Shown: positions 13,278 to 32,855 of the stretch, in pieces | Layout of the letters: each line of letters opens with the position of its first letter | Position numbering within the stretch: the first letter of the stretch is position 1 | Source: Escherichia coli | Lineage (GTDB): Bacteria > Pseudomonadota > Gammaproteobacteria > Enterobacterales > Enterobacteriaceae | Strand: one strand, 5' to 3' | Assembly (NCBI RefSeq): GCF_044324785.1 | Contig: NZ_CP172127.1 | DNA: 64,000 bases | Notes under the pieces: generated by a model | Database searches by the model: none | Told to the model about the DNA's origin: nothing | What the model saw: only the letters and a program-made list of their open reading frames with translations | Made by a program: the position numbers and the translations under genes

Positions 13278-14453
13278 CTACAACCCTAACGCATATTTCA
13301 GCGCCTGACGTTTCAACACGCCAGCACGCTCCGCCGCCATCAAACCAAGATTACGCACAAAACGCAGTGGTGGCAGATTATTGCTGAATCCGGCATAAAA
13401 CAGATCCATACCGCTCTGCATAATGAAGTTATCCGCCATGCGCCGCATCTGGTAACGCTTGAGGATCGGATAACTGGCCCACGCTTCGCCATGGCTGCGA
13501 GCGTTGACCAGAACGTCAATCAGGGCATCGACATCACGATAACCAAGATTCACCCCCTGCCCCGCCAGCGGATGAATGGTGTGCGCCGCATCGCCCACCA
13601 GCGCAAGCCCCGGCTGCACATACTGCAACGCATGGCGGCGCGTCAGCGGAAAAGCGCCAGCGGCAAGCGGTGTTACATACCCAAGACGCGACGGGAAATG
13701 CTTCGCGATTTCCGCCTGTAACTGCGCCATATTCATATTCTGCAACTGGCGAATGCGTGCCGGAGAGTCATACCACACCAGCGATGCCCAGTTATCAAAC
13801 AACGGCAGAAACGCACGAGGTCCATCCGGGGTAAATTGCTGCCAGGTGCTGTCGCCGGGATCGTTCTCACACTGTACGCTAATCAACATACACGACTGTG
13901 CATACTGCCAGGCATGAACGCCAATTCCCGCCATCTGCCGCACCTGCGAATTTGCGCCGTCGGCACCAATCACCAGCTTCGCGCGGATCGTTTCACCGCC
14001 CTTCAGTTCCAGCTCCTGAAGATCATTATGGCGATGCAGCGCAATCAGCGAGCCTGGCACACGTAACGTTACTTTCGGATGCGCTTCCAGCGCCTGCCAC
14101 AGCGCCTGTTGCAGGACAGTGTTTTCCACCATGTAGCCAAGCAACGGTAGCTTAAGTTCAGCGGCGTCAAACACCACATGCGCCGTTTCCCACTCCCACG
14201 TTTCCAGTCTGCGGTAGGGATGGCAACGCATAGCCTGTACCGCGTCCCAGACGCCTAAACCTTTAAGCAATGATACCGAAGCCGCGCTGATCGCCGAGAT
14301 CCGCACGTCCGGCTGGCTGTCAGCGACAAACGGTGCAGGTTGGGCATGTTCGATAACCATTACCGAAAATCCGTGCTGAGCCAGTCCCAGCGCCAGTGCG
14401 CCGCCGACCATTCCTCCGCCGACAATGGCAATTTCCGTTGGTTGATTTGTCAT
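13278..14453 (-). CDS. ubiF: Ubiquinone biosynthesis hydroxylase UbiF (FAD-dependent monooxygenase)
   Basis: 391 aa from MTNQPTEIAIVGGGMVGGALA (FAD-binding GxGxxG); track ORF begins 2 codons upstream. Confidence 0.9.
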   Translation of the reverse strand: MTNQPTEIAIVGGGMVGGALALGLAQHGFSVMVIEHAQPAPFVADSQPDVRISAISAASVSLLKGLGVWDAVQAMRCHPYRRLETWEWETAHVVFDAAELKLPLLGYMVENTVLQQALWQALEAHPKVTLRVPGSLIALHRHNDLQELELKGGETIRAKLVIGADGANSQVRQMAGIGVHAWQYAQSCMLISVQCENDPGDSTWQQFTPDGPRAFLPLFDNWASLVWYDSPARIRQLQNMNMAQLQAEIAKHFPSRLGYVTPLAAGAFPLTRRHALQYVQPGLALVGDAAHTIHPLAGQGVNLGYRDVDALIDVLVNARSHGEAWASYPILKRYQMRRMADNFIMQSGMDLFYAGFSNNLPPLRFVRNLGLMAAERAGVLKRQALKYALGL

Positions 14454-24878: not shown

Positions 24879-24961
24879 CACACGTCATTGATTAAGATCA
24901 CCACGCGTTACCCGGGTGGTCTTAATCTGTTTATCTCTTTTTCTTTCAAGATATAAATGCA

Positions 24962-26632
24962 ATGGATAATGCAGAACTCGCCATTGGTATCGATCTCGGC
25001 ACTACCAATAGTTTAATTGCCGTCTGGAAAGACGGTGCCGCGCAATTAATTCCAAATAAGTTCGGTGAATATTTAACACCATCCATAATTAGCATGGATG
25101 AAAATAATCATATTTTAGTCGGAAAACCCGCTGTATCACGGCGCACTTCGCATCCGGATAAAACGGCAGCGTTATTTAAACGTGCAATGGGCAGTAATAC
25201 CAACTGGCGGTTAGGCAGCGACACATTTAACGCGCCAGAACTGTCCTCTTTGGTATTACGCTCATTAAAAGAAGATGCCGAAGAATTTCTGCAACGTCCG
25301 ATTAAAGATGTGGTGATCTCCGTTCCGGCTTATTTCAGCGATGAACAACGCAAGCATACCCGTTTAGCAGCGGAGTTAGCCGGGTTAAATGCGGTACGCT
25401 TAATTAATGAACCCACAGCAGCTGCGATGGCATATGGCCTGCATACGCAACAAAATACCCGCTCACTGGTTTTTGATCTCGGTGGCGGCACGTTTGACGT
25501 CACGGTGCTCGAATACGCCACGCCGGTGATTGAAGTTCACGCCTCCGCTGGCGACAACTTTCTTGGCGGCGAAGATTTTACTCATATGCTGGTGGATGAA
25601 GTTTTAAAACGCGCCGCAGTGGCTAAAAACATGCTCAACGAAAGTGAGCTGGCAGCCCTGTACACCAGCGTGGAAGCGGCAAAATGCGGCAATCAATTAC
25701 CGCTGCAAATTAGCTGGCAGTATCAGGAAGAAACGCGTGAGTGCGAATTTTACGAGAACGAACTGGAAGATTTGTGGTTGCCGCTGCTCAATCGCTTGCG
25801 AGTGCCGATTGAACAGGCGTTGCGCGATGCACGTCTGAAGCCAAGTCAAATCGACAGTCTGGTGCTGGTTGGCGGCGCATCACAAATGCCGCTGGTGCAG
25901 CGAATCGCCGTACGTCTGTTTGGCAAATTACCATATCAAAGTTACGACCCGAGCACCATTGTCGCGCTGGGCGCAGCAATCCAGGCCGCCTGCCGCTTAC
26001 GCAGTGAAGATATTGAAGAGGTGATCCTCACTGATATTTGCCCTTACTCGTTGGGTGTTGAAGTTAACCGCCAGGGCGTTTCCGGCATTTTCTCGCCGAT
26101 TATTGAACGAAACACCACTGTACCGGTGTCGCGTGTAGAAACTTACTCGACCATGCACCCGGAACAGGATTCAATTACGGTTAACGTCTATCAGGGAGAA
26201 AATCACAAAGTTAAAAATAACATTCTGGTGGAATCCTTCGATGTGCCGTTGAAGAAAACCGGGGCTTATCAGTCGATTGATATTCGCTTTAGTTATGATA
26301 TCAACGGGTTGCTTGAAGTTGACGTGCTTCTGGAAGACGGCAGCGTTAAGTCCAGAGTCATTAATCACAGTCCTGTAACATTGAGCGCACAGCAGATTGA
26401 AGAGAGTCGGACGCGGTTATCCGCATTGAAAATTTATCCGCGCGATATGCTCATCAACCGTACCTTTAAAGCCAAACTGGAAGAGTTGTGGGCGCGGGCG
26501 CTGGGTGACGAGCGAGAAGAGATCGGCCAGGTGATCACCGATTTTGATGCGGCGTTGCAGTCAAACGATATGGCCCGCGTCGATGAAGTTCGGCGACGGG
26601 CGAGCGATTATTTGGCAATTGAGATCCCTTAA
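24962..26632 (+). CDS. hscC: HscC (Hsc62), atypical Hsp70-family chaperone
   Basis: 556-aa ORF; Hsp70 N-terminal ATPase signature IDLGTTNS, DLGGGTFD; shorter than DnaK. Confidence 0.95.
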   Translation: MDNAELAIGIDLGTTNSLIAVWKDGAAQLIPNKFGEYLTPSIISMDENNHILVGKPAVSRRTSHPDKTAALFKRAMGSNTNWRLGSDTFNAPELSSLVLRSLKEDAEEFLQRPIKDVVISVPAYFSDEQRKHTRLAAELAGLNAVRLINEPTAAAMAYGLHTQQNTRSLVFDLGGGTFDVTVLEYATPVIEVHASAGDNFLGGEDFTHMLVDEVLKRAAVAKNMLNESELAALYTSVEAAKCGNQLPLQISWQYQEETRECEFYENELEDLWLPLLNRLRVPIEQALRDARLKPSQIDSLVLVGGASQMPLVQRIAVRLFGKLPYQSYDPSTIVALGAAIQAACRLRSEDIEEVILTDICPYSLGVEVNRQGVSGIFSPIIERNTTVPVSRVETYSTMHPEQDSITVNVYQGENHKVKNNILVESFDVPLKKTGAYQSIDIRFSYDINGLLEVDVLLEDGSVKSRVINHSPVTLSAQQIEESRTRLSALKIYPRDMLINRTFKAKLEELWARALGDEREEIGQVITDFDAALQSNDMARVDEVRRRASDYLAIEIP

Positions 26633-26640
26633 ACACGGCT

Positions 26641-26673
26641 GCCGGATGCGGCATAAACGCTGCATCCGGCATC
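26641..26673. repeat. REP-like palindrome between convergent hscC and djlC
   Basis: GCCGGATGCGGCATAAACGCTGCATCCGGCATC. Confidence 0.5.
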
Positions 26674-26691
26674 GGCGCAAAAAACACTTCC

Positions 26692-28143
26692 TCAGCTAAA
26701 CAACATCGCGATTTTTCCGAGAGCATAACCTATCACCAGCACCGTTAAGCTGATTTTGATAATGCTGGTAATGCTCTGTGGTTTTTCATCCTCATCATTT
26801 TTTTCTTCGTGGTTTTCAGGTGTTGGCTCATCGACATCTTCATCCTCCGGCTCGAGTTTCACTTTCGTCAACAGCATCCGGGTGATAATGGCCTCTAATG
26901 GATGAGCATCTCCACCTTCCAGCCTTGTATTAAGACGGGCCAGCATCTCTTGTTTCGGGAACGCTTCCAGCACAACCTGTTCCGCTACCCGATACAAATC
27001 CAGTAACGGTGAATCTTGTTCTGTCTCGCTACCGACTCTCGATTTCCACCACGCCCATGCTTTGCGCTTGAAGAATAACGACTCAATAAACGATTGACCT
27101 AACGGCGATAATTTTCCGCTATGTAAAATTTCCGCCCATAACAGCCGCGTCCGGGCGCTCTCACCAGGAACATATTTCAACGGTTGACCTTGCGCATCAA
27201 CCATGCTCTGCGCTTCGATAACCATCACTAACAGCGCGAAATAATCCGGGCAATGACGCTTGCTCCACTGCAACAACAAATTATCGGCTTGTGTAGATGG
27301 GTAACTCTCCCGGTATGCGCAGAGATCGGCAAGCAGGCTTTCCCCCTCGCCACAGTACAACCGTTGCGCACACTGGTAATAACGGGCATCTTCGCTTTCT
27401 GGTTCTTCTGCTTGCCACTGTTGGGCAACAGGAATGAGTTCCGCCATACCTGTTTTCACCGAGCTGTACCAGCGCAACAGTTTGCGATGTAACTTGACAT
27501 CATCAGGAATGAACCACGGACCTTCCATTGCCATAAACGCAGTGACATAGTCGGGATGGTAACGGCAGCAGCGTTCCAGCGCGAAGTAATACTCAACAGT
27601 CTGGTTCTGCAACGCGACGGGATATTCCAGAAGGCTAAGGAAACCGAAACAATCACCAGCCTGAATGGCCTCAAGAAAAGCCTCCCTTTCTTCCTCATCC
27701 ATTCCTTCGCTGTCATTAAACGAATGCCAGTTCAAACGCTCTGCCAGCAAAGAAGCACAATTTAATGAAAGATATCGCGCTTCTATAGCGATTGCACACA
27801 GCGGCCAGCGTAATTGATCGACATCCTCCATGTTCCAGGTATTTAATTGCTGAATAAATTTCTGCCAGGCGGAGGGCTGAAAACGATCACTTTCTGAATC
27901 CAGTAATGTCCTGAATGCACGTAGTATTTCATGTTCAGCGGCGGCATCTTTACCTTCATTATCTGCTTCCTCGACAGGATTTACCGCCAGTCGCAGCGCC
28001 TCTTCATAGGCCTGGCGTAATGCTTTAAACCCCTGCGGATCGGTTTCGGGATGACACAACGGTAAGCGAGCAAGATAAGCCTGGCGGATAATGTCTATTT
28101 GCGTCGTGCTTTCAATTTCGAGGATTTGCCAACATGTTTTCAT
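26692..28143 (-). CDS. djlC: DjlC (YbeV/Hsc56), membrane-anchored J-domain co-chaperone of HscC
   Basis: 483-aa ORF; N-terminal J-like domain with HPE in place of HPD; C-terminal hydrophobic anchor; 4-nt overlap with upstream ybeU. Confidence 0.9.
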
Positions 28144-28847
28144 AGGTCGCTCACATCCTTAAGCGTTACCGGGCATTCAGGCTGGGCAGTCAATGGCTGC
28201 CAGGGAAGCGTGGCATAGAAACGATCGCTTCCCGCTGCCAGCTCTTCGAACATCCGACTCCCGGCGCTATCGTATTTGTACAGGGTTAGCGCCTCGCGTA
28301 GCGAAGCGTTGTCTTCGCACTGAGAAGATTGCCAGTAGAGACGCCCTAACGAATAGGCGGAAAAATAGTGCATCCAGCTGTGATAGTAATGGTGTGCTCG
28401 TATATAGACGCGCGATTGCAGCCATAAACTCTCGTCTTCCGTCAGCCACTTGTTGAGCACACCAACCCGTGATAAAAAACCCATCCGCACATAATCCCAG
28501 GCTTTGATTCCCCCTTCCCCACAACACATAGCGGTTTGGGCAACGAATTGGGTATAAATCAACCCTCTCTCCGAGCCGCCAGCAATTAATGCTTTCCACT
28601 CTTCAGGGGAAGAGCGATGCCATGTCAGATATAAGCCAGCTAAATCATTGGCATGACCATCATCGGTCATCTGATAAATAGTCTGAATTAAATCATCACG
28701 ATTATTTATTCCCCAGGATGATGAGAGATCGAATTCTTTTATCCCGGTATACATTTTTGGCGAGTCATGCGCAGGCTTGCAACCCTGATTAAGTATTTCC
28801 ATGGGCGTAGAAAGCGCAAAAAGAAGATATTGTTCTTCCTTATTCAT
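28140..28847 (-). CDS. ybeU: YbeU, DUF1266 family protein
   Basis: 235-aa ORF; clear paralog of YbeR (shared [30 protein letters not shown]). Confidence 0.88.
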
Positions 28848-28948
28848 TTGTTAATAATCCCTTAAGTGCATTAACTGACTACTTTTTTATTATTGATGAG
28901 TATAAACTTGACGCTTTCAAAATAAAAAGAAAATCGAAGCATTCACAC

Positions 28949-29503
28949 ATGAATAAAAAATTAATGTATATATTCGCAATATTTATAGTTGCAGCAATAA
29001 CCTGTATTAGCCAACCCAAGAAAACGACGTTGCGTGATAAAGCCATGGCGAATTATGCCTTTGATTATTTAAGCTCACCGGGCAGTCTTCCATTCACCAC
29101 GGCAGCCACGGAGCTTTCCGCGATTCATGGTCACTCAACGTCGCAATATCGCCTTGGAGAATTTTATCTTCATGGTAGCGACGGTAAACCACTGGATTAT
29201 ACACAGGCGAGATACTGGTATGAGCAATCAGCGGAACAGGAAAATCCACGCGCGCAAAGTAAACTGGGGTGGATCTACCTCAAAGGTCTGGGGGTCAAAC
29301 CCGATACCCGTAAAGCAATTCTCTGGTATAAGGAAGCAGCTGAACAAGGGTATGCTCATGCTCAATATACTTTAGGTTTGATCTACAGAAACGGCTCAGG
29401 TATTAATGTTAACCATTATGAATCTCAAAAATGGTTAAAACTGGCCGCCAAACAACATTACAAAAATGCGGAAAGATTACTTGCCGGGCTTCCCGCACAT
29501 TAA
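28949..29503 (+). CDS. ybeT: YbeT, Sel1-repeat (TPR-like) protein with N-terminal hydrophobic segment
   Basis: 184-aa ORF; Sel1 repeats (e.g. [32 protein letters not shown]); divergent from ybeU. Confidence 0.88.
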
Positions 29504-29512
29504 CGTCGACTG

Positions 29513-30940
29513 TCACCCGAACAGATGGAGTATTTTCCCTATCAAACCGGCAAAGATAAAAATGTAGAAAATAATTTTGATGACGCCCAGACAGCCCGGC
29601 CCACCATCGTCAACGGGCATTGGCTGCGGTTGCGGCTCCGGTTCGACGGTTTGCTTCTCGGTAAAATTTGCCGCCTGAATTAATAATCGACGAATCATTA
29701 ATGCTTCCAGTGGACAACGATCTTCTGCATCAAGGCGGCTCACAATCGGCATTAATGATTCTTCTGTCGGTTGGCTGGCCTGAACTAATTGTTTAGCAAC
29801 TAAATATAATGGCCATAAGGGATGTTCTGTATCACGCGTGAGTGAGATTCGCGGCTTACGTCCTTTGTGCAAAACCATCTCGACCAGAGAACGCCCCAGC
29901 GCAGAGAGTTTTTCATCACTGAGTATTTCGTATAAATGAAAACGCGTACGAGCGCTGTCACCAGGGACATAAAGTAGCGGTTTTCCCTGATCGTTAACCA
30001 GATCACGCGCTTCAATCATCATCACCACTAATGGGTAATAATCGACCCGATGCTGACGGCACCATTGCAACATTAAAGCATCCGCCTGAGTGGAGGGATA
30101 CTCGCGCCAGTAGTCACAAAGTTCTGCCAGCAGGCTTTCGCCTTCTCCACAATAGACGCGTTGCGCGTATTCATAATAACGCGCATCTTCATTATCAGGT
30201 TCAGCTTCCCGCCACGACCGGGCGTAATCCAGAAGTTCGGGGATATCCAGACGGCTTGTGCTATACCAGCGGAGTAAATTTCTGTGCAAATTTGCATCAT
30301 CGGGGATGATCACTGCGCGATGTTGCGCTAAATACAATGTCAGCCATTCTGGATGCGATGACCAAATCCGAGCGAACATTTGGTAAAAATCGATGGTGTC
30401 ATTTTGCACGGCAACGGGCAGATGCAGAATGGTCTGGAAGTTAAAAACATTCCCCTTCGCAATGGCATATAAAAAGGATTCCAGTTCTTCTTCGTCTATT
30501 TCCCCGACGTTTTCCTCCTGCAACCACCGCAATCTTTCTGCTAATAACACCACGCACTCGAAGGATAAATGGGCAGTGTTCATGGCGATTGTGCACAGCG
30601 ACCAGCGTAATTCATCAATCTCTTCCATCGAGCAATAATTTAATTGCTGAATGAATCGCTGCCAGGCGGAGGGCAGAAAACGTTCGATATCAGAGGCAAG
30701 TAACGCGCGAAAGGCGAGCAGAATTTCATGTTCTGCTACCTCATATTCTTCTGGTTGCCAAACAGATTTAGCAGGCGACTGCGCAATCCGTAGCGCATCC
30801 TCATACGCCTGACGAAGTTGTTTAAAACCCTGCGGATCGGTTTCTGGATGAAAGGACGGTAACAGCGCCAGATAAGCGCGGCGGATAATATCGACGTCAG
30901 TCGTTTGAGATATATCGAGGATCTGCCAGCAATTTTTCAT
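29513..30940 (-). CDS. djlB: DjlB (YbeS), membrane-anchored J-domain protein, paralog of DjlC
   Basis: 475-aa ORF; N-terminal J-like domain (HPE), C-terminal hydrophobic anchor; 4-nt overlap with upstream ybeR. Confidence 0.9.
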
Positions 30941-31644
30941 AGGTCGCTCATATCCTTAAGCGTTTCCGGGCATGCAGAATAGTAAGCCAATGGTTGCCAG
31001 GACAAGGTAGGGTAATACGCATCATCACTGGCAAATAATTGATAAAACATATCATTGCCGGAATCGTCGTATTCTTTACGCGCTAAGAATTCACGTAATA
31101 ACTGAAGATTATCATCTTCGGGAGACTGCCAATATTGCCGACCAAAGGTATAACCGGCAAAGTATTGCCGCCAGTTACTATAATAACGTAGAGCCCGTAG
31201 ATGAATACGCGACTGGATCCATAGACTTTCTTCTTCACTCAACCAGTTATTAAGTACGCCCATTCGGCTTAAAAAACCCATCCGGACATAATCCCAGGCT
31301 TTAATTCCTCCCTCACCACAGCATTCGGCGGTGCTGGCGACAAATTGCGCATAAGCCTGACCTTGCTCATTTAATTCAGCAAGATAGTCACGCCATTCAC
31401 ATGGCGAATAACGAAACCAGCAGTGATAAAACCCTGCCAACCGCGCGGCATGACCGTTATCAATCATTCGGTGAATTGTGCGCAGCAGGTCATCACGGTT
31501 ATCAATTCCCCAGGAGGAAGAAAGGTCAAAAAAGCGTGTACCTAAATACATTTTGGGGGATGAATGCGAAGGTAAACAGCATTCATTGCGTATTTCCATC
31601 GGAGTGGAAAGTGCAAACAATATTTTTTGCGACTCCATGTCCAT
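30937..31644 (-). CDS. ybeR: YbeR, DUF1266 family protein, paralog of YbeU
   Basis: 235 aa from [18 protein letters not shown]; track ORF has 9 extra N-terminal codons. Confidence 0.85.
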
Positions 31645-31807
31645 ATAATTTATCCTTAAATATTCATTCAATGAATATTAACCACGTTGCGAGGCTCATT
31701 TATTTATACTTTTCTGACGCAACATAATACGCATAAAATAAGGTTTACGCAAAAATGGAACACATAAAAATATAATATGCTTTATATGCAACCATAAGGA
31801 AATGATA

Positions 31808-32785
31808 ATGATTTTTACGTCAAGTTGCTGCGATAATTTATCAATAGATGAGATTATCGAACGTGCTGAAAAAGGCGATTGCGAGGCTCAATATATTATT
31901 GGGTTTTATTATAATCGCGATAGCGCAATTGACTCTCCGGACGACGAAAAGGCTTTTTACTGGCTGAAGCTGGCCGCTGAGCAAGGTCATTGTGAAGCAC
32001 AATATTCCTTAGGGCAAAAGTATACCGAGGATAAAAGCCGTCATAAAGATAATGGGCAAGCCATCTTTTGGCTGAAAAAAGCTGCCCTACAAGGCCATAC
32101 TTTCGCTTCCAACGCCCTTGGCTGGATACTGGATCGTGGAGAAGACCCCAACTATAAAGAAGCGGTTGCCTGGTATCAGATAGCCGCGGAGAGCGGAATG
32201 TCTTATGCGCATAATAATCTTGGGTGGATGTACAGAAATGGCAACGGAGTCGCACAAGACTATACGCTGGCATTTTTCTGGTACAAACAAGCTGCATTAC
32301 AAGGCCATAGTGACGCGCAAAACAATCTGGCCGATCTTTATGAAGACGGAAAAGGCGTTGCTCAAAACGAGACACTCGCCGCATTCTGGTATTTGAAAAG
32401 CGCACAGCAGGGTAATCGGCATGCCCAGTTTCAAATTGCATGGGATTATAACGCTGGCGAAGGGGTGGACCAGGACTATAAGCAAGCCATGTACTGGTAT
32501 CTGAAGGCTGCCGCTCAGGAAAGCGTCGGCGCTTACGTCAACATCGGTTATATGTATAAACATGGACAAGGCGTTGAGAAAGATTATCAGACCGCCTTTG
32601 AATGGTTTATGAAAGCCGCTGAATGCAATGACGCCACTGCCTGGTATAACCTGGCCATTATGTATCACTACGGAGAAGGAAGACCTGTCGATCTCCGACA
32701 GGCTCTCGACCTGTATCGTAAAGTTCAGGCATCCGGTACCAGGGATGTCAGTCAAGAAATCCGTGAGATTGAAGATTTACTGTAA
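31808..32785 (+). CDS. ybeQ: YbeQ, Sel1-repeat protein
   Basis: 325 aa from MIFTSS; at least seven Sel1 repeats of the form A..LG.(M/I)Y..G.GV..D; divergent from ybeR. Confidence 0.88.
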   Translation: MIFTSSCCDNLSIDEIIERAEKGDCEAQYIIGFYYNRDSAIDSPDDEKAFYWLKLAAEQGHCEAQYSLGQKYTEDKSRHKDNGQAIFWLKKAALQGHTFASNALGWILDRGEDPNYKEAVAWYQIAAESGMSYAHNNLGWMYRNGNGVAQDYTLAFFWYKQAALQGHSDAQNNLADLYEDGKGVAQNETLAAFWYLKSAQQGNRHAQFQIAWDYNAGEGVDQDYKQAMYWYLKAAAQESVGAYVNIGYMYKHGQGVEKDYQTAFEWFMKAAECNDATAWYNLAIMYHYGEGRPVDLRQALDLYRKVQASGTRDVSQEIREIEDLL

Positions 32786-32795
32786 GAGATAAAAA

Positions 32796-32825
32796 CAAGG
32801 GCCGGGGAATTTTATTCGGCCCATA
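32796..32825. terminator. Probable bidirectional terminator between convergent ybeQ and ybeL
   Basis: GGGCCG...CGGCCC hairpin flanked by A-run upstream and T-rich sequence downstream. Confidence 0.5.
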
Positions 32826-32855
32826 TTCTCTTTATTGCTGTGCGAAATCAAACCA

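Follow-up and report, generated by a model that had tools for sequence, protein, structure and literature searches.

DUF1266 proteins as candidate J-protein-bound subunits of the HscC chaperone system of Escherichia coli

Introduction

HscA-HscB-IscU comprises a specialised, low-abundance Hsp70, an exclusive class C J-protein and a third protein encoded alongside, and it does not need a GrpE-type exchange factor. In all of these respects it resembles the system considered here, the hscC locus of Escherichia coli, which we analysed within a 64,000-nucleotide stretch of contig NZ_CP172127.1 (this whole stretch is referred to as the window) and in which the Hsp70 HscC, the J-proteins DjlC and DjlB and the DUF1266 proteins YbeU and YbeR are encoded side by side. 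The HscC system differs in being membrane-tethered and in possessing HPE instead of HPD in its J-domains. A further difference lies in the third protein. IscU is a transient client of known function that is uncoupled from HscB and is found in many genomes without HscBA, whereas stand-alone DUF1266 proteins were always accompanied by a J-protein and an Hsp70 in the contexts examined, are encoded by genes that overlap the J gene and in one lineage are fused to the J-protein. We report that this coupling is conserved over distant genera, and we favor, with a probability of roughly 0.5, the reading that DUF1266 is an obligate, J-protein-bound specificity subunit of a three-part, membrane-tethered HscC machine.

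Other described systems offer partial likenesses. In Pam18(Tim14)-Pam16(Tim16)-mtHsp70 a membrane-anchored J-protein and a small obligate partner position an Hsp70 at the membrane, much as the HscC trio may do. Pam16, however, is a degenerate J-like domain whereas DUF1266 has an unrelated fold of 13 predicted helices, and the HscC trio has no known association with a translocon. DnaK-DnaJ-GrpE is likewise a three-gene Hsp70 machine, but DUF1266 bears no structural resemblance to GrpE in the comparisons made and is coupled to the J-protein, not to the Hsp70. The TPR-containing J-proteins and receptors (DNAJC7/TPR2, DNAJC3/p58IPK, TOM70, Sti1/Hop) are unlike DjlC, which has a PF27158 solenoid with no TPR recognizable by sequence, an N-terminal HPE J-domain, a tail anchor and a separate, putatively obligate subunit. 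DjlA, like DjlC, is a class C J-protein held at the inner membrane, but its anchor is N-terminal and its J-domain, of the HPD type, is C-terminal; we know of no DUF1266-type partner for it. DjlA works with DnaK (PMC8215388).

DjlC specifically stimulates the ATPase of HscC (Kluck et al. 2002) and inserts into the membrane (Peschke et al. 2018), both as cited in PMC8215388; stimulation of HscC by DjlB is assumed from its similarity to DjlC. Mutants without hscC, or without both djlB and djlC, are sensitive to Cd2+, and sensitivity of mutants to ultraviolet light has also been reported (PMC8215388). HPE, the one variant of HPD noted as tolerated (PMC13254874), is given as the hallmark of DjlB/C (PMC13254874, PMC10410713). 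Reviews from 2021, 2023 and 2026 name only DjlB and DjlC as partners of HscC, give no client and do not mention DUF1266 (PMC8215388, PMC10410713, PMC13254874). In the literature that we searched, the coverage of which excluded most subscription journals, DUF1266 appears only as a row in an expression table (PMC7582179), and the old gene names led to nothing on function.

Results

DUF1266 genes are coupled to J-protein genes beside an HscC-type Hsp70

An earlier note on this locus, made from the letters of the window, had proposed that each DUF1266 protein is a dedicated client, adaptor or regulator of the J-protein encoded after it, within a self-contained module that includes HscC. Look-ups were carried out for 11 stand-alone DUF1266 representatives, with profile E-values from 1e-61 to 1e-12. 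A long overlapping gene adjoined the DUF1266 gene in 11/11; this gene matched DjlB_C_2nd or DnaJ in 8/11, and wherever the contig was sufficient an Hsp70 of 557-566 aa was present. A genome scan, with one genome per species and an alignment of the YbeU-like subfamily as the query, gave 78 loci from Escherichia, Klebsiella spallanzanii, Rahnella, Erwinia, Pectobacterium, Limnobaculum, Gilliamella, Pseudomonas, Marinobacter and Bowmanella. Pairs and neighbors were then counted by open reading frame (ORF) and hidden Markov model analysis of 81 loci, which contain 90 DUF1266-J pairs. The DUF1266/J junction overlaps in every one of the 90, as ATGA in 86 and as TAATG in 4, and 87 of the 90 J-domains carry HPE. 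An Hsp70 of HscC length (555-563 aa) lies beside the pair in 77 of the 81 loci, and the other four contigs end too early. The proposed association of DUF1266-J pairs with HscC-type Hsp70s therefore extends to many genera, without exception in the 77 assessable loci. The Hsp70 gene is mostly convergent with the J gene and the 3' ends overlap in 29 loci, an arrangement that might couple expression via antisense transcription. In the Pseudomonas loci (L020-L090, for example L036 at 13380-13383) this overlap is typically 4 nt.

Two permuted arrangements and a fusion bear on the same point. In Clostridium carboxidivorans P7 the order is Hsp70, then a long gene (858 aa) with DnaJ, TPR and DjlB_C_2nd matches, then DUF1266, all co-directional and overlapping; the Hsp70 aligns with E. 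coli HscC from end to end at 44% identity. The trio is found in more than one phylum. Gallaecimonas shows the same permuted order, again with overlaps, and its 630-aa middle gene has a faint TPR match only. In the protein P0370 an HPE J-domain, TPR repeats and DUF1266 are present in one chain, and the J-domain is 61% identical to that of the Clostridium Djl protein; judged by its sequence, P0370 is a classical fusion (“Rosetta stone”) link between J-domain and DUF1266. Taken with the linked model described below, the coupling, the permuted orders and the fusion uphold the idea that DUF1266 is a dedicated partner of the J-protein, and they do not separate the roles of client, adaptor and regulator.

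The form of the J-protein varies. In E. coli and K. spallanzanii it has 472-483 aa and a single tail anchor. Outside Enterobacteriaceae its length is about 890-920 aa: besides the J-domain and the DjlB middle region it has an extension of some 400 aa and a membrane domain that resembles DUF805, with an RRLHD...NRYGPP motif and 1-3 transmembrane (TM) segments by hydropathy, usually 2-3. The pair is duplicated beside a single Hsp70 in Escherichia and in a further lineage (L010). A duplicated pair is also present in Pokkaliibacter (L009), on a contig stretch that stops short of any Hsp70 gene. Among the loci analysed, separate Sel1 genes were found in Escherichia only, and in the L010 lineage Sel1 repeats are fused onto the C-terminus of both J-proteins. 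To judge from these matches TPR-type repeats are a recurrent, not a universal, part of the system. The notion that a Sel1 partner belongs to each unit thus survives in part: such repeats occur fused to the J-protein elsewhere, but the separate genes are lineage-specific and not core. The 400-aa extension was considered as a cryptic Sel1/TPR counterpart of YbeT and YbeQ and was rejected at the sequence level (hhalign probability 0.1%).

In a Marinobacter-like lineage (L007, 12.5-15.2 kb; L008, 9.9-12.5 kb) and in Pokkaliibacter (L009, 2.1-7.6 kb) the trio lies beside a PspA_IM30/DUF2170/GSP_synth/DUF1190/DUF350/DUF2491 cluster that resembles yjfIJKLMC. These PspA-type neighbors may represent a link to membrane stress, or merely the common ancestry of the region.

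A predicted complex of YbeU and DjlC

YbeU and DjlC were modelled with AlphaFold as one chain of 700 residues, YbeU-(GGGGS)5-DjlC(1-440), using a paired alignment of 21 syntenic pairs. The linked model has a predicted local distance difference test score (pLDDT) of 83 and a predicted template modelling score (pTM) of 0.76, with low confidence only in the linker, the hinge between J-domain and solenoid, one short loop and the tail. For N = 700, the scale d0 of the TM-score is about 9 Å; YbeU accounts for 34% of the chain, and by our own estimate two independently placed proteins would reach a pTM of at most about 0.55-0.57. The value of 0.76 exceeds this ceiling, so that the placement of YbeU relative to DjlC appears to be confident. 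Structure prediction, which the earlier note had named as a check, thus supports a physical YbeU-DjlC complex, and we infer such a complex from the model, short of proof.

YbeU matches DUF1266 (Pfam PF06889) with an E-value of 4.4e-45 over model positions 2-175 of 175. Its predicted fold is confident and all-helical, with 13 helices and no solved relative. An exhaustive profile search grouped the family into 1015 clusters at 50% identity; it was this search that supplied the distant members, since a word-indexed protein search was confined to matches from Enterobacteriaceae. Seven residues, W117, D118, R121, R127, E139, W158 and W172, are invariant.

Several database entries from this family deserve mention. 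Many truncated ybeU products (193-, 170- and 161-aa forms) occur among the E. coli clusters, the two shorter forms with more than 300 member sequences each, which points to frequent frameshift or decay of ybeU in some lineages; some ybeU clusters bear the annotation “putative tRNA ligase”. At the end of a contig labelled Paenibacillus sp. USDA918EY (L017, 10001-10387), a 764-aa ORF contains a fragment of ybeU with 98% identity to E. coli, which probably reflects contamination or chimeric assembly. Comparable cases are an AFDB entry from Trichuris trichiura, named “DNAJC13-like”, that shares 94% identity with YbeU, and an E. coli AFDB entry of 627 aa that joins YbeU and DjlC.

Organization of the locus

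The features of the locus are as follows, with positions given in the window.

24879-32855: the dispensable island as a whole, from the rihA stop to the ybeL stop
24962-26632, plus strand: hscC (RefSeq hscC), ORF of 556 aa; atypical Hsp70, the ATPase motor common to the module
26636-26674, between the convergent hscC and djlC stops: palindrome resembling a repetitive extragenic palindromic (REP) element, from the sequence as read and a hairpin fold
26692-28143, minus strand: djlC, ORF for a 483-aa J-protein
27979-28143, minus strand: djlC J-domain of the HPE type, aa 1-55
djlC aa ~62-430: TPR-like helical solenoid, with an acidic linker after it
26716-26772, minus strand: djlC tail-anchor TM segment, aa 458-476, from hydropathy
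28140-28143, minus strand: ATGA, overlap of ybeU stop and djlC start, from the ORFs
28140-28847, minus strand: ybeU, ORF for a 235-aa DUF1266 protein, cytoplasmic and all-helical
28848-28948: divergent ybeU/ybeT control region, AT-rich, with GC content down to 0.40 in the surrounding windows
28949-29503, plus strand: ybeT, ORF for a 184-aa Sel1-repeat protein
29513-30940, minus strand: djlB (RefSeq djlB), ORF of 475 aa; J(HPE), solenoid and tail anchor as in djlC, TM segment at aa 449-467
30937-30940, minus strand: ATGA, overlap of ybeR stop and djlB start, from the ORFs
30937-31644, minus strand: ybeR, 235-aa DUF1266 paralogue of ybeU (RefSeq: DUF1266 protein)
31645-31801: divergent ybeR/ybeQ control region, AT-rich, GC content 0.39-0.41
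31802-32785, plus strand: ybeQ, ORF of 327 aa (325 aa in RefSeq); cytoplasmic Sel1-repeat protein with ~7 repeats

In the E. coli genome that matches best (98.9% identity), RefSeq likewise annotates these seven genes, flanked by rihA and ybeL. The geometry had been described correctly: there are two minus-strand pairs, ybeU>djlC and ybeR>djlB, each with a 4-nt ATGA overlap, the Sel1 genes diverge from them, and 9 nt lie between the stops of the convergent ybeT and djlB. Two starts call for comment. The mechanical ORF of ybeR begins at a TTG at 31671, whereas the annotated and conserved start is the ATG at 31644, and RefSeq places the start of ybeQ two codons downstream, at 31808. A promoter and terminator scan of the locus found fewer promoter-like sites than in shuffled sequence.

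YbeU and YbeR are 60% identical across 235 aa without a gap and DjlC and DjlB are 52% identical, in agreement with the paralogy that had been seen at the protein level, while the Sel1 repeats of YbeT and YbeQ align at 33-37% identity in several repeat registers. At the DNA level there are four collinear blocks of 71-83% identity with a constant offset of 2797 nt, the best preserved of which covers the junction of DUF1266 stop and J start. The locus is therefore a tandem duplication of a three-gene unit, in which djl and DUF1266 read one way and Sel1 the other, beside one hscC. Residual DNA identity between the djl genes had also been claimed, and the blocks bear this out, but the 19-mer cited as an example is exact in djlB only and has one mismatch in djlC; two matches to it were found in 0/100 shuffles. 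In Escherichia sp. MOD1-EC7003 (L013, 3648-5003) a broken third Djl copy, now a 93-aa J-domain ORF and a 344-aa middle-domain ORF, lies between ybeL and ybeQ and points to a further unit that has since decayed.

The spacer over which hscC converges on djlC contains, as had been noticed, a REP-like palindrome. It folds into a 13+3 bp hairpin with a free energy of -29.6 kcal/mol (z = -6.6; none of 200 shuffles was equally stable). At 26640-26671, outside the genes, lies the GC-rich sequence tGCCGGATGCGGCataaacGCTGCATCCGGCa, an imperfect palindrome of the GCCGGATG...CATCCGGC type, and the hairpin is similar to the REP palindrome that fills the empty rihA-ybeL site of strains that lack the island. 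It is probably a bidirectional terminator or a stabilizer of mRNA.

Identity of the parts

HscC scores 377-385 bits on the NCBIfam models for DnaK and HscA, for which the cut-offs are 620-822. These scores fall far under both cut-offs, and HscC is thus a third type of Hsp70, neither DnaK nor HscA; five Hsp70 neighbors from other genera score HscC-like against the same models. The Pfam J-domain match of DjlC is weak (E = 0.034), and its motif, like that of DjlB, is HPE and not HPD. The middle region of DjlC belongs to DjlB_C_2nd (PF27158), a recent Pfam family. It forms a TPR-like solenoid, a helix-turn-helix superhelix that resembles solved TPR proteins, and TPR was undetectable in it by sequence. 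A hydropathy scan confirmed the C-terminal hydrophobic anchor that had been attributed to both J-proteins, with one hydrophobic 19-mer close to the C-terminus in each (aa 458-476 in DjlC, aa 449-467 in DjlB). DjlC, DjlB, YbeU and YbeR matched no NCBIfam model.

YbeT has an N-terminal hydrophobic signal or anchor at aa ~6-19, which suggests that its repeats probably face the periplasm, and YbeQ has no N-terminal hydrophobic segment. Both contain tandem repeats of about 36-44 residues, recognizable as Sel1 at repeat-level similarity only, and both match NCBIfam models built on Sel1 proteins (MerG, MotX, ExoR, AlgK), all under the equivalog cut-offs. The best match of each is the phenylmercury-resistance Sel1 protein MerG, with 52 bits for YbeT and 95 bits for YbeQ. 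This likeness was considered as a link to the Cd2+ phenotype and rejected, because the scores are far under the 350-bit cut-off and reflect common Sel1 repeats.

Distribution of the island in E. coli and its relatives

Of 5426 complete E. coli genomes, 5424 have a match to the 10-kb stretch around the locus, with 98.9% identity at most. By megablast hscC is present in 4409 of the 5426 (81%) and was undetected in 1017 (19%); the djlB-ybeR unit is intact in 3707 (68%). About 13% of the genomes keep hscC-djlC-ybeU-ybeT, whereas djlB and ybeR have been deleted together, as a pair, along with the 5' part of ybeQ. A djlC/djlB recombinant also occurs. In island-less strains the rihA-ybeL gap measures 44 bp, with the REP palindrome alone between the two genes. 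In E. coli EC2641 (L002, 2442-3392) a DUF6985 gene and a hypothetical gene replace the hscC island; the site can therefore hold alternative cargo, and neither of the two proteins has a match in PADLOC.

The island lies between rihA and ybeL in E. whittamii and in two Escherichia sp. genomes. In Klebsiella spallanzanii only one pair is present, next to ybeL-leuS, and nothing in that locus matches RihA. Given this shared site in related genomes, loss is the best reading of the absences in E. coli. The earlier note was thus right to call this a known, annotated locus and not a novel insertion, but the segment behaves as a dispensable island.

Where hscC is present, its identity to the allele in the window is 90-95% in 1232 genomes, 95-99% in 3054 and at least 99% in 121, while for the whole 10-kb region nearly all E. 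coli genomes fall at 95-99%. As judged from these alignments, the wide spread suggests divergent allele classes or recombination.

Expression

ybeT and ybeU-djlC are listed in the H-NS regulon, and overexpression of SlyA raises them 4.1- and 2.8-fold (PMC5797941). In strain 042 the DUF1266 gene EC042_RS03510 is up 308-fold in a comparison tabulated for an hns mutant at 25 C (PMC7582179); we did not assign this gene to ybeU or ybeR specifically. DjlC is listed as positively Crl-regulated (PMC6469107), and HscC, DjlB and DjlC are under the proteomic detection limit in growing cells (PMC8215388). The low level of these proteins during growth fits silencing by H-NS and regulation by SlyA and Crl.

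Discussion

The locus, the HscC-DjlB/C partnership, the HPE motif and the tail anchor were already known. The coupling, the conservation of the trio, the fusion, the joint duplication and loss of the pair, the TPR-like scaffold and the novel DUF1266 fold come from the present work, and a role for DUF1266 appears to be new. That this role is one of adaptor we infer, and the mechanism might be as follows. Three proteins would make up the functional unit: the HscC-type Hsp70, a J-protein of the DjlB/C type that is anchored in the membrane, and the DUF1266 protein. Coupled translation of ybeU-djlC, and likewise of ybeR-djlB, would favor matched synthesis of the two proteins, after which the DUF1266 protein would bind the J-protein as a stable subunit, with the TPR-like solenoid as the suggested dock. 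The complex would be held at the membrane by the tail anchor in E. coli and by the DUF805-like domain, with its 2-3 predicted TM helices, in most other lineages. There the HPE J-domain would recruit HscC-ATP and trigger its ATPase, and HscC would clamp a protein presented by the DUF1266/solenoid head. DUF1266 would thus give a class C J-protein its specificity, as an adaptor subunit provided in trans, and the duplication in E. coli would have provided two diverged specificity heads for one common HscC. The Sel1 proteins may be lineage-specific docking accessories, YbeT probably periplasmic or anchored and YbeQ cytoplasmic. Expression of the module would be conditional, being silenced by H-NS, raised when SlyA is overexpressed and, in the case of DjlC, listed as positively regulated by Crl. 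The idea of a self-contained, membrane-associated HscC module is upheld by the conserved coupling and by the Hsp70 in 77/77 assessable loci.

Several considerations weigh against this interpretation. The putative YbeU-DjlC interface is judged by the pTM of one linked model, and the covalent linker may favor packing. Co-occurrence was counted from the DUF1266 side. The conservation and the fusion fit DUF1266 as a regulator of the J-domain equally well. DUF1266 also occurs in multi-domain proteins, probably extracellular, with Cu_amine_oxidN1, SLH, LRR or peptidase domains, which implies a role of the domain that is independent of Hsp70, and its invariant W/D/R/E/H residues might bind a ligand or belong to a catalytic site instead of forming a surface for docking. 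Finally, reviews from 2021 to 2026 name no client of the HscC system (PMC8215388, PMC10410713, PMC13254874).

A broader proposal is more tentative. DUF1266 might represent a new class of Hsp70 co-factor, whose W/D/R/E pocket reads an envelope or stress ligand or client, and the trio might be a sensor-remodeller distributed from Clostridia to Gammaproteobacteria. It would then be a conditionally expressed, membrane-tethered device and not a general chaperone, possibly with a role in conflict or envelope defence.

Among the other explanations, the one that survives best, although we consider it rather unlikely, is that DUF1266 is a dedicated client by analogy with IscU: the J-protein would hand YbeU or YbeR to HscC, which would switch its conformation or activity, for example by releasing or activating a function of the conserved W/D/R/E pocket. 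HscA-HscB-IscU is an established case of a specialised Hsp70 that serves one client encoded nearby. The seven invariant residues look like a functional site, the domain works without an Hsp70 in the probably extracellular fusions, and the evidence from synteny applies equally. However, a protein that is coupled 1:1 to the J-protein, is docked confidently on it, at least as predicted, and is fused to it in P0370 resembles a more permanent subunit than a substrate that turns over, and no HscC-binding motif was identified. DUF1266 might instead regulate the HscC cycle, either as an exchange factor, in a trio like dnaK-dnaJ-grpE, or as a Pam16-like brake on the J-domain. The three-gene arrangement and the fusion suit such a role, but its predicted fold showed no resemblance to exchange factors (GrpE, BAG, HspBP1/Sil1) in the comparisons made, and we regard this explanation as improbable.

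We give similarly poor odds to the idea that the trio is a conflict, defence or envelope-stress system in which the Hsp70 cycle would be the switch and the effector would be the J-protein's membrane domain, either DUF805-like or a tail anchor. The polymorphic presence and internal deletions of the island within E. coli, the strong silencing by H-NS, the repeated duplication and divergence of the specificity pair, its patchy distribution, the other cargo at the same site in one strain and the PspA-type neighbors in the Marinobacter-like and Pokkaliibacter loci would all be in keeping with such a system. A comparison with PADLOC-DB 2.0, however, found no match for HscC, DjlC, DjlB, YbeU or YbeR, and only weak repeat-level matches of YbeT and YbeQ to PtuA (E = 2e-3 and 2e-4), no stretch of which passes alone. 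No nuclease, protease or NADase effector domain was recognized. Housekeeping genes flank the locus both in E. coli and in a Pseudomonas-like contig. The four enterobacterial genomes examined from outside E. coli have the island at an unchanged chromosomal position, which agrees with vertical descent and later loss. The phage collection yielded only two fragments that encode a YbeR-like DUF1266, OR851168.1 and OR845923.1 (2.6 and 1.5 kb), and these are most likely packaged or contaminating host DNA and not phage genes. Matches to plasmids were mostly to chromosome-sized records of 0.7-4.9 Mb or to others that look chromosomal, the exception being the megaplasmids of Erwinia persicina. With neither a PADLOC match nor phage carriage, with housekeeping flanks and with plasmid carriage in E. 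persicina only, the suggestion in the earlier note that the module is related to defence found no support. On one of the Erwinia persicina plasmids, the 138-kb non-mobilizable p_Cp2 (L098, 9678-12337), the annotation splits the long J gene into four, namely one piece with a J domain, two hypothetical proteins and one DUF805 protein. The gene is either a pseudogene or affected by sequencing errors; the plasmid's gene table, which is incomplete, lists no Hsp70 gene for this stretch.

That the DUF1266 and Sel1 genes are unrelated neighbors of hscC and djl with incidental overlaps is partly viable for Sel1, which most lineages lack, and 4-nt overlaps are frequent in bacterial operons generally, but for DUF1266 it is effectively refuted by the 90/90 junctions over distant genera, the permuted order in a Firmicute and the fusion protein.

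Of the three types of bacterial Hsp70, HscC has been the orphan since 2002. If DUF1266 is its specificity subunit, the earlier biochemistry with HscC and DjlC missed a component, the search for a client becomes tractable by way of YbeU and YbeR, and a widespread domain of 1015 clusters gains a functional context. The locus would also offer a clean natural case of one Hsp70 motor with duplicated, diverging J-protein/adaptor heads, and the long-standing question of how HscC acts and with which partners would become directly testable.

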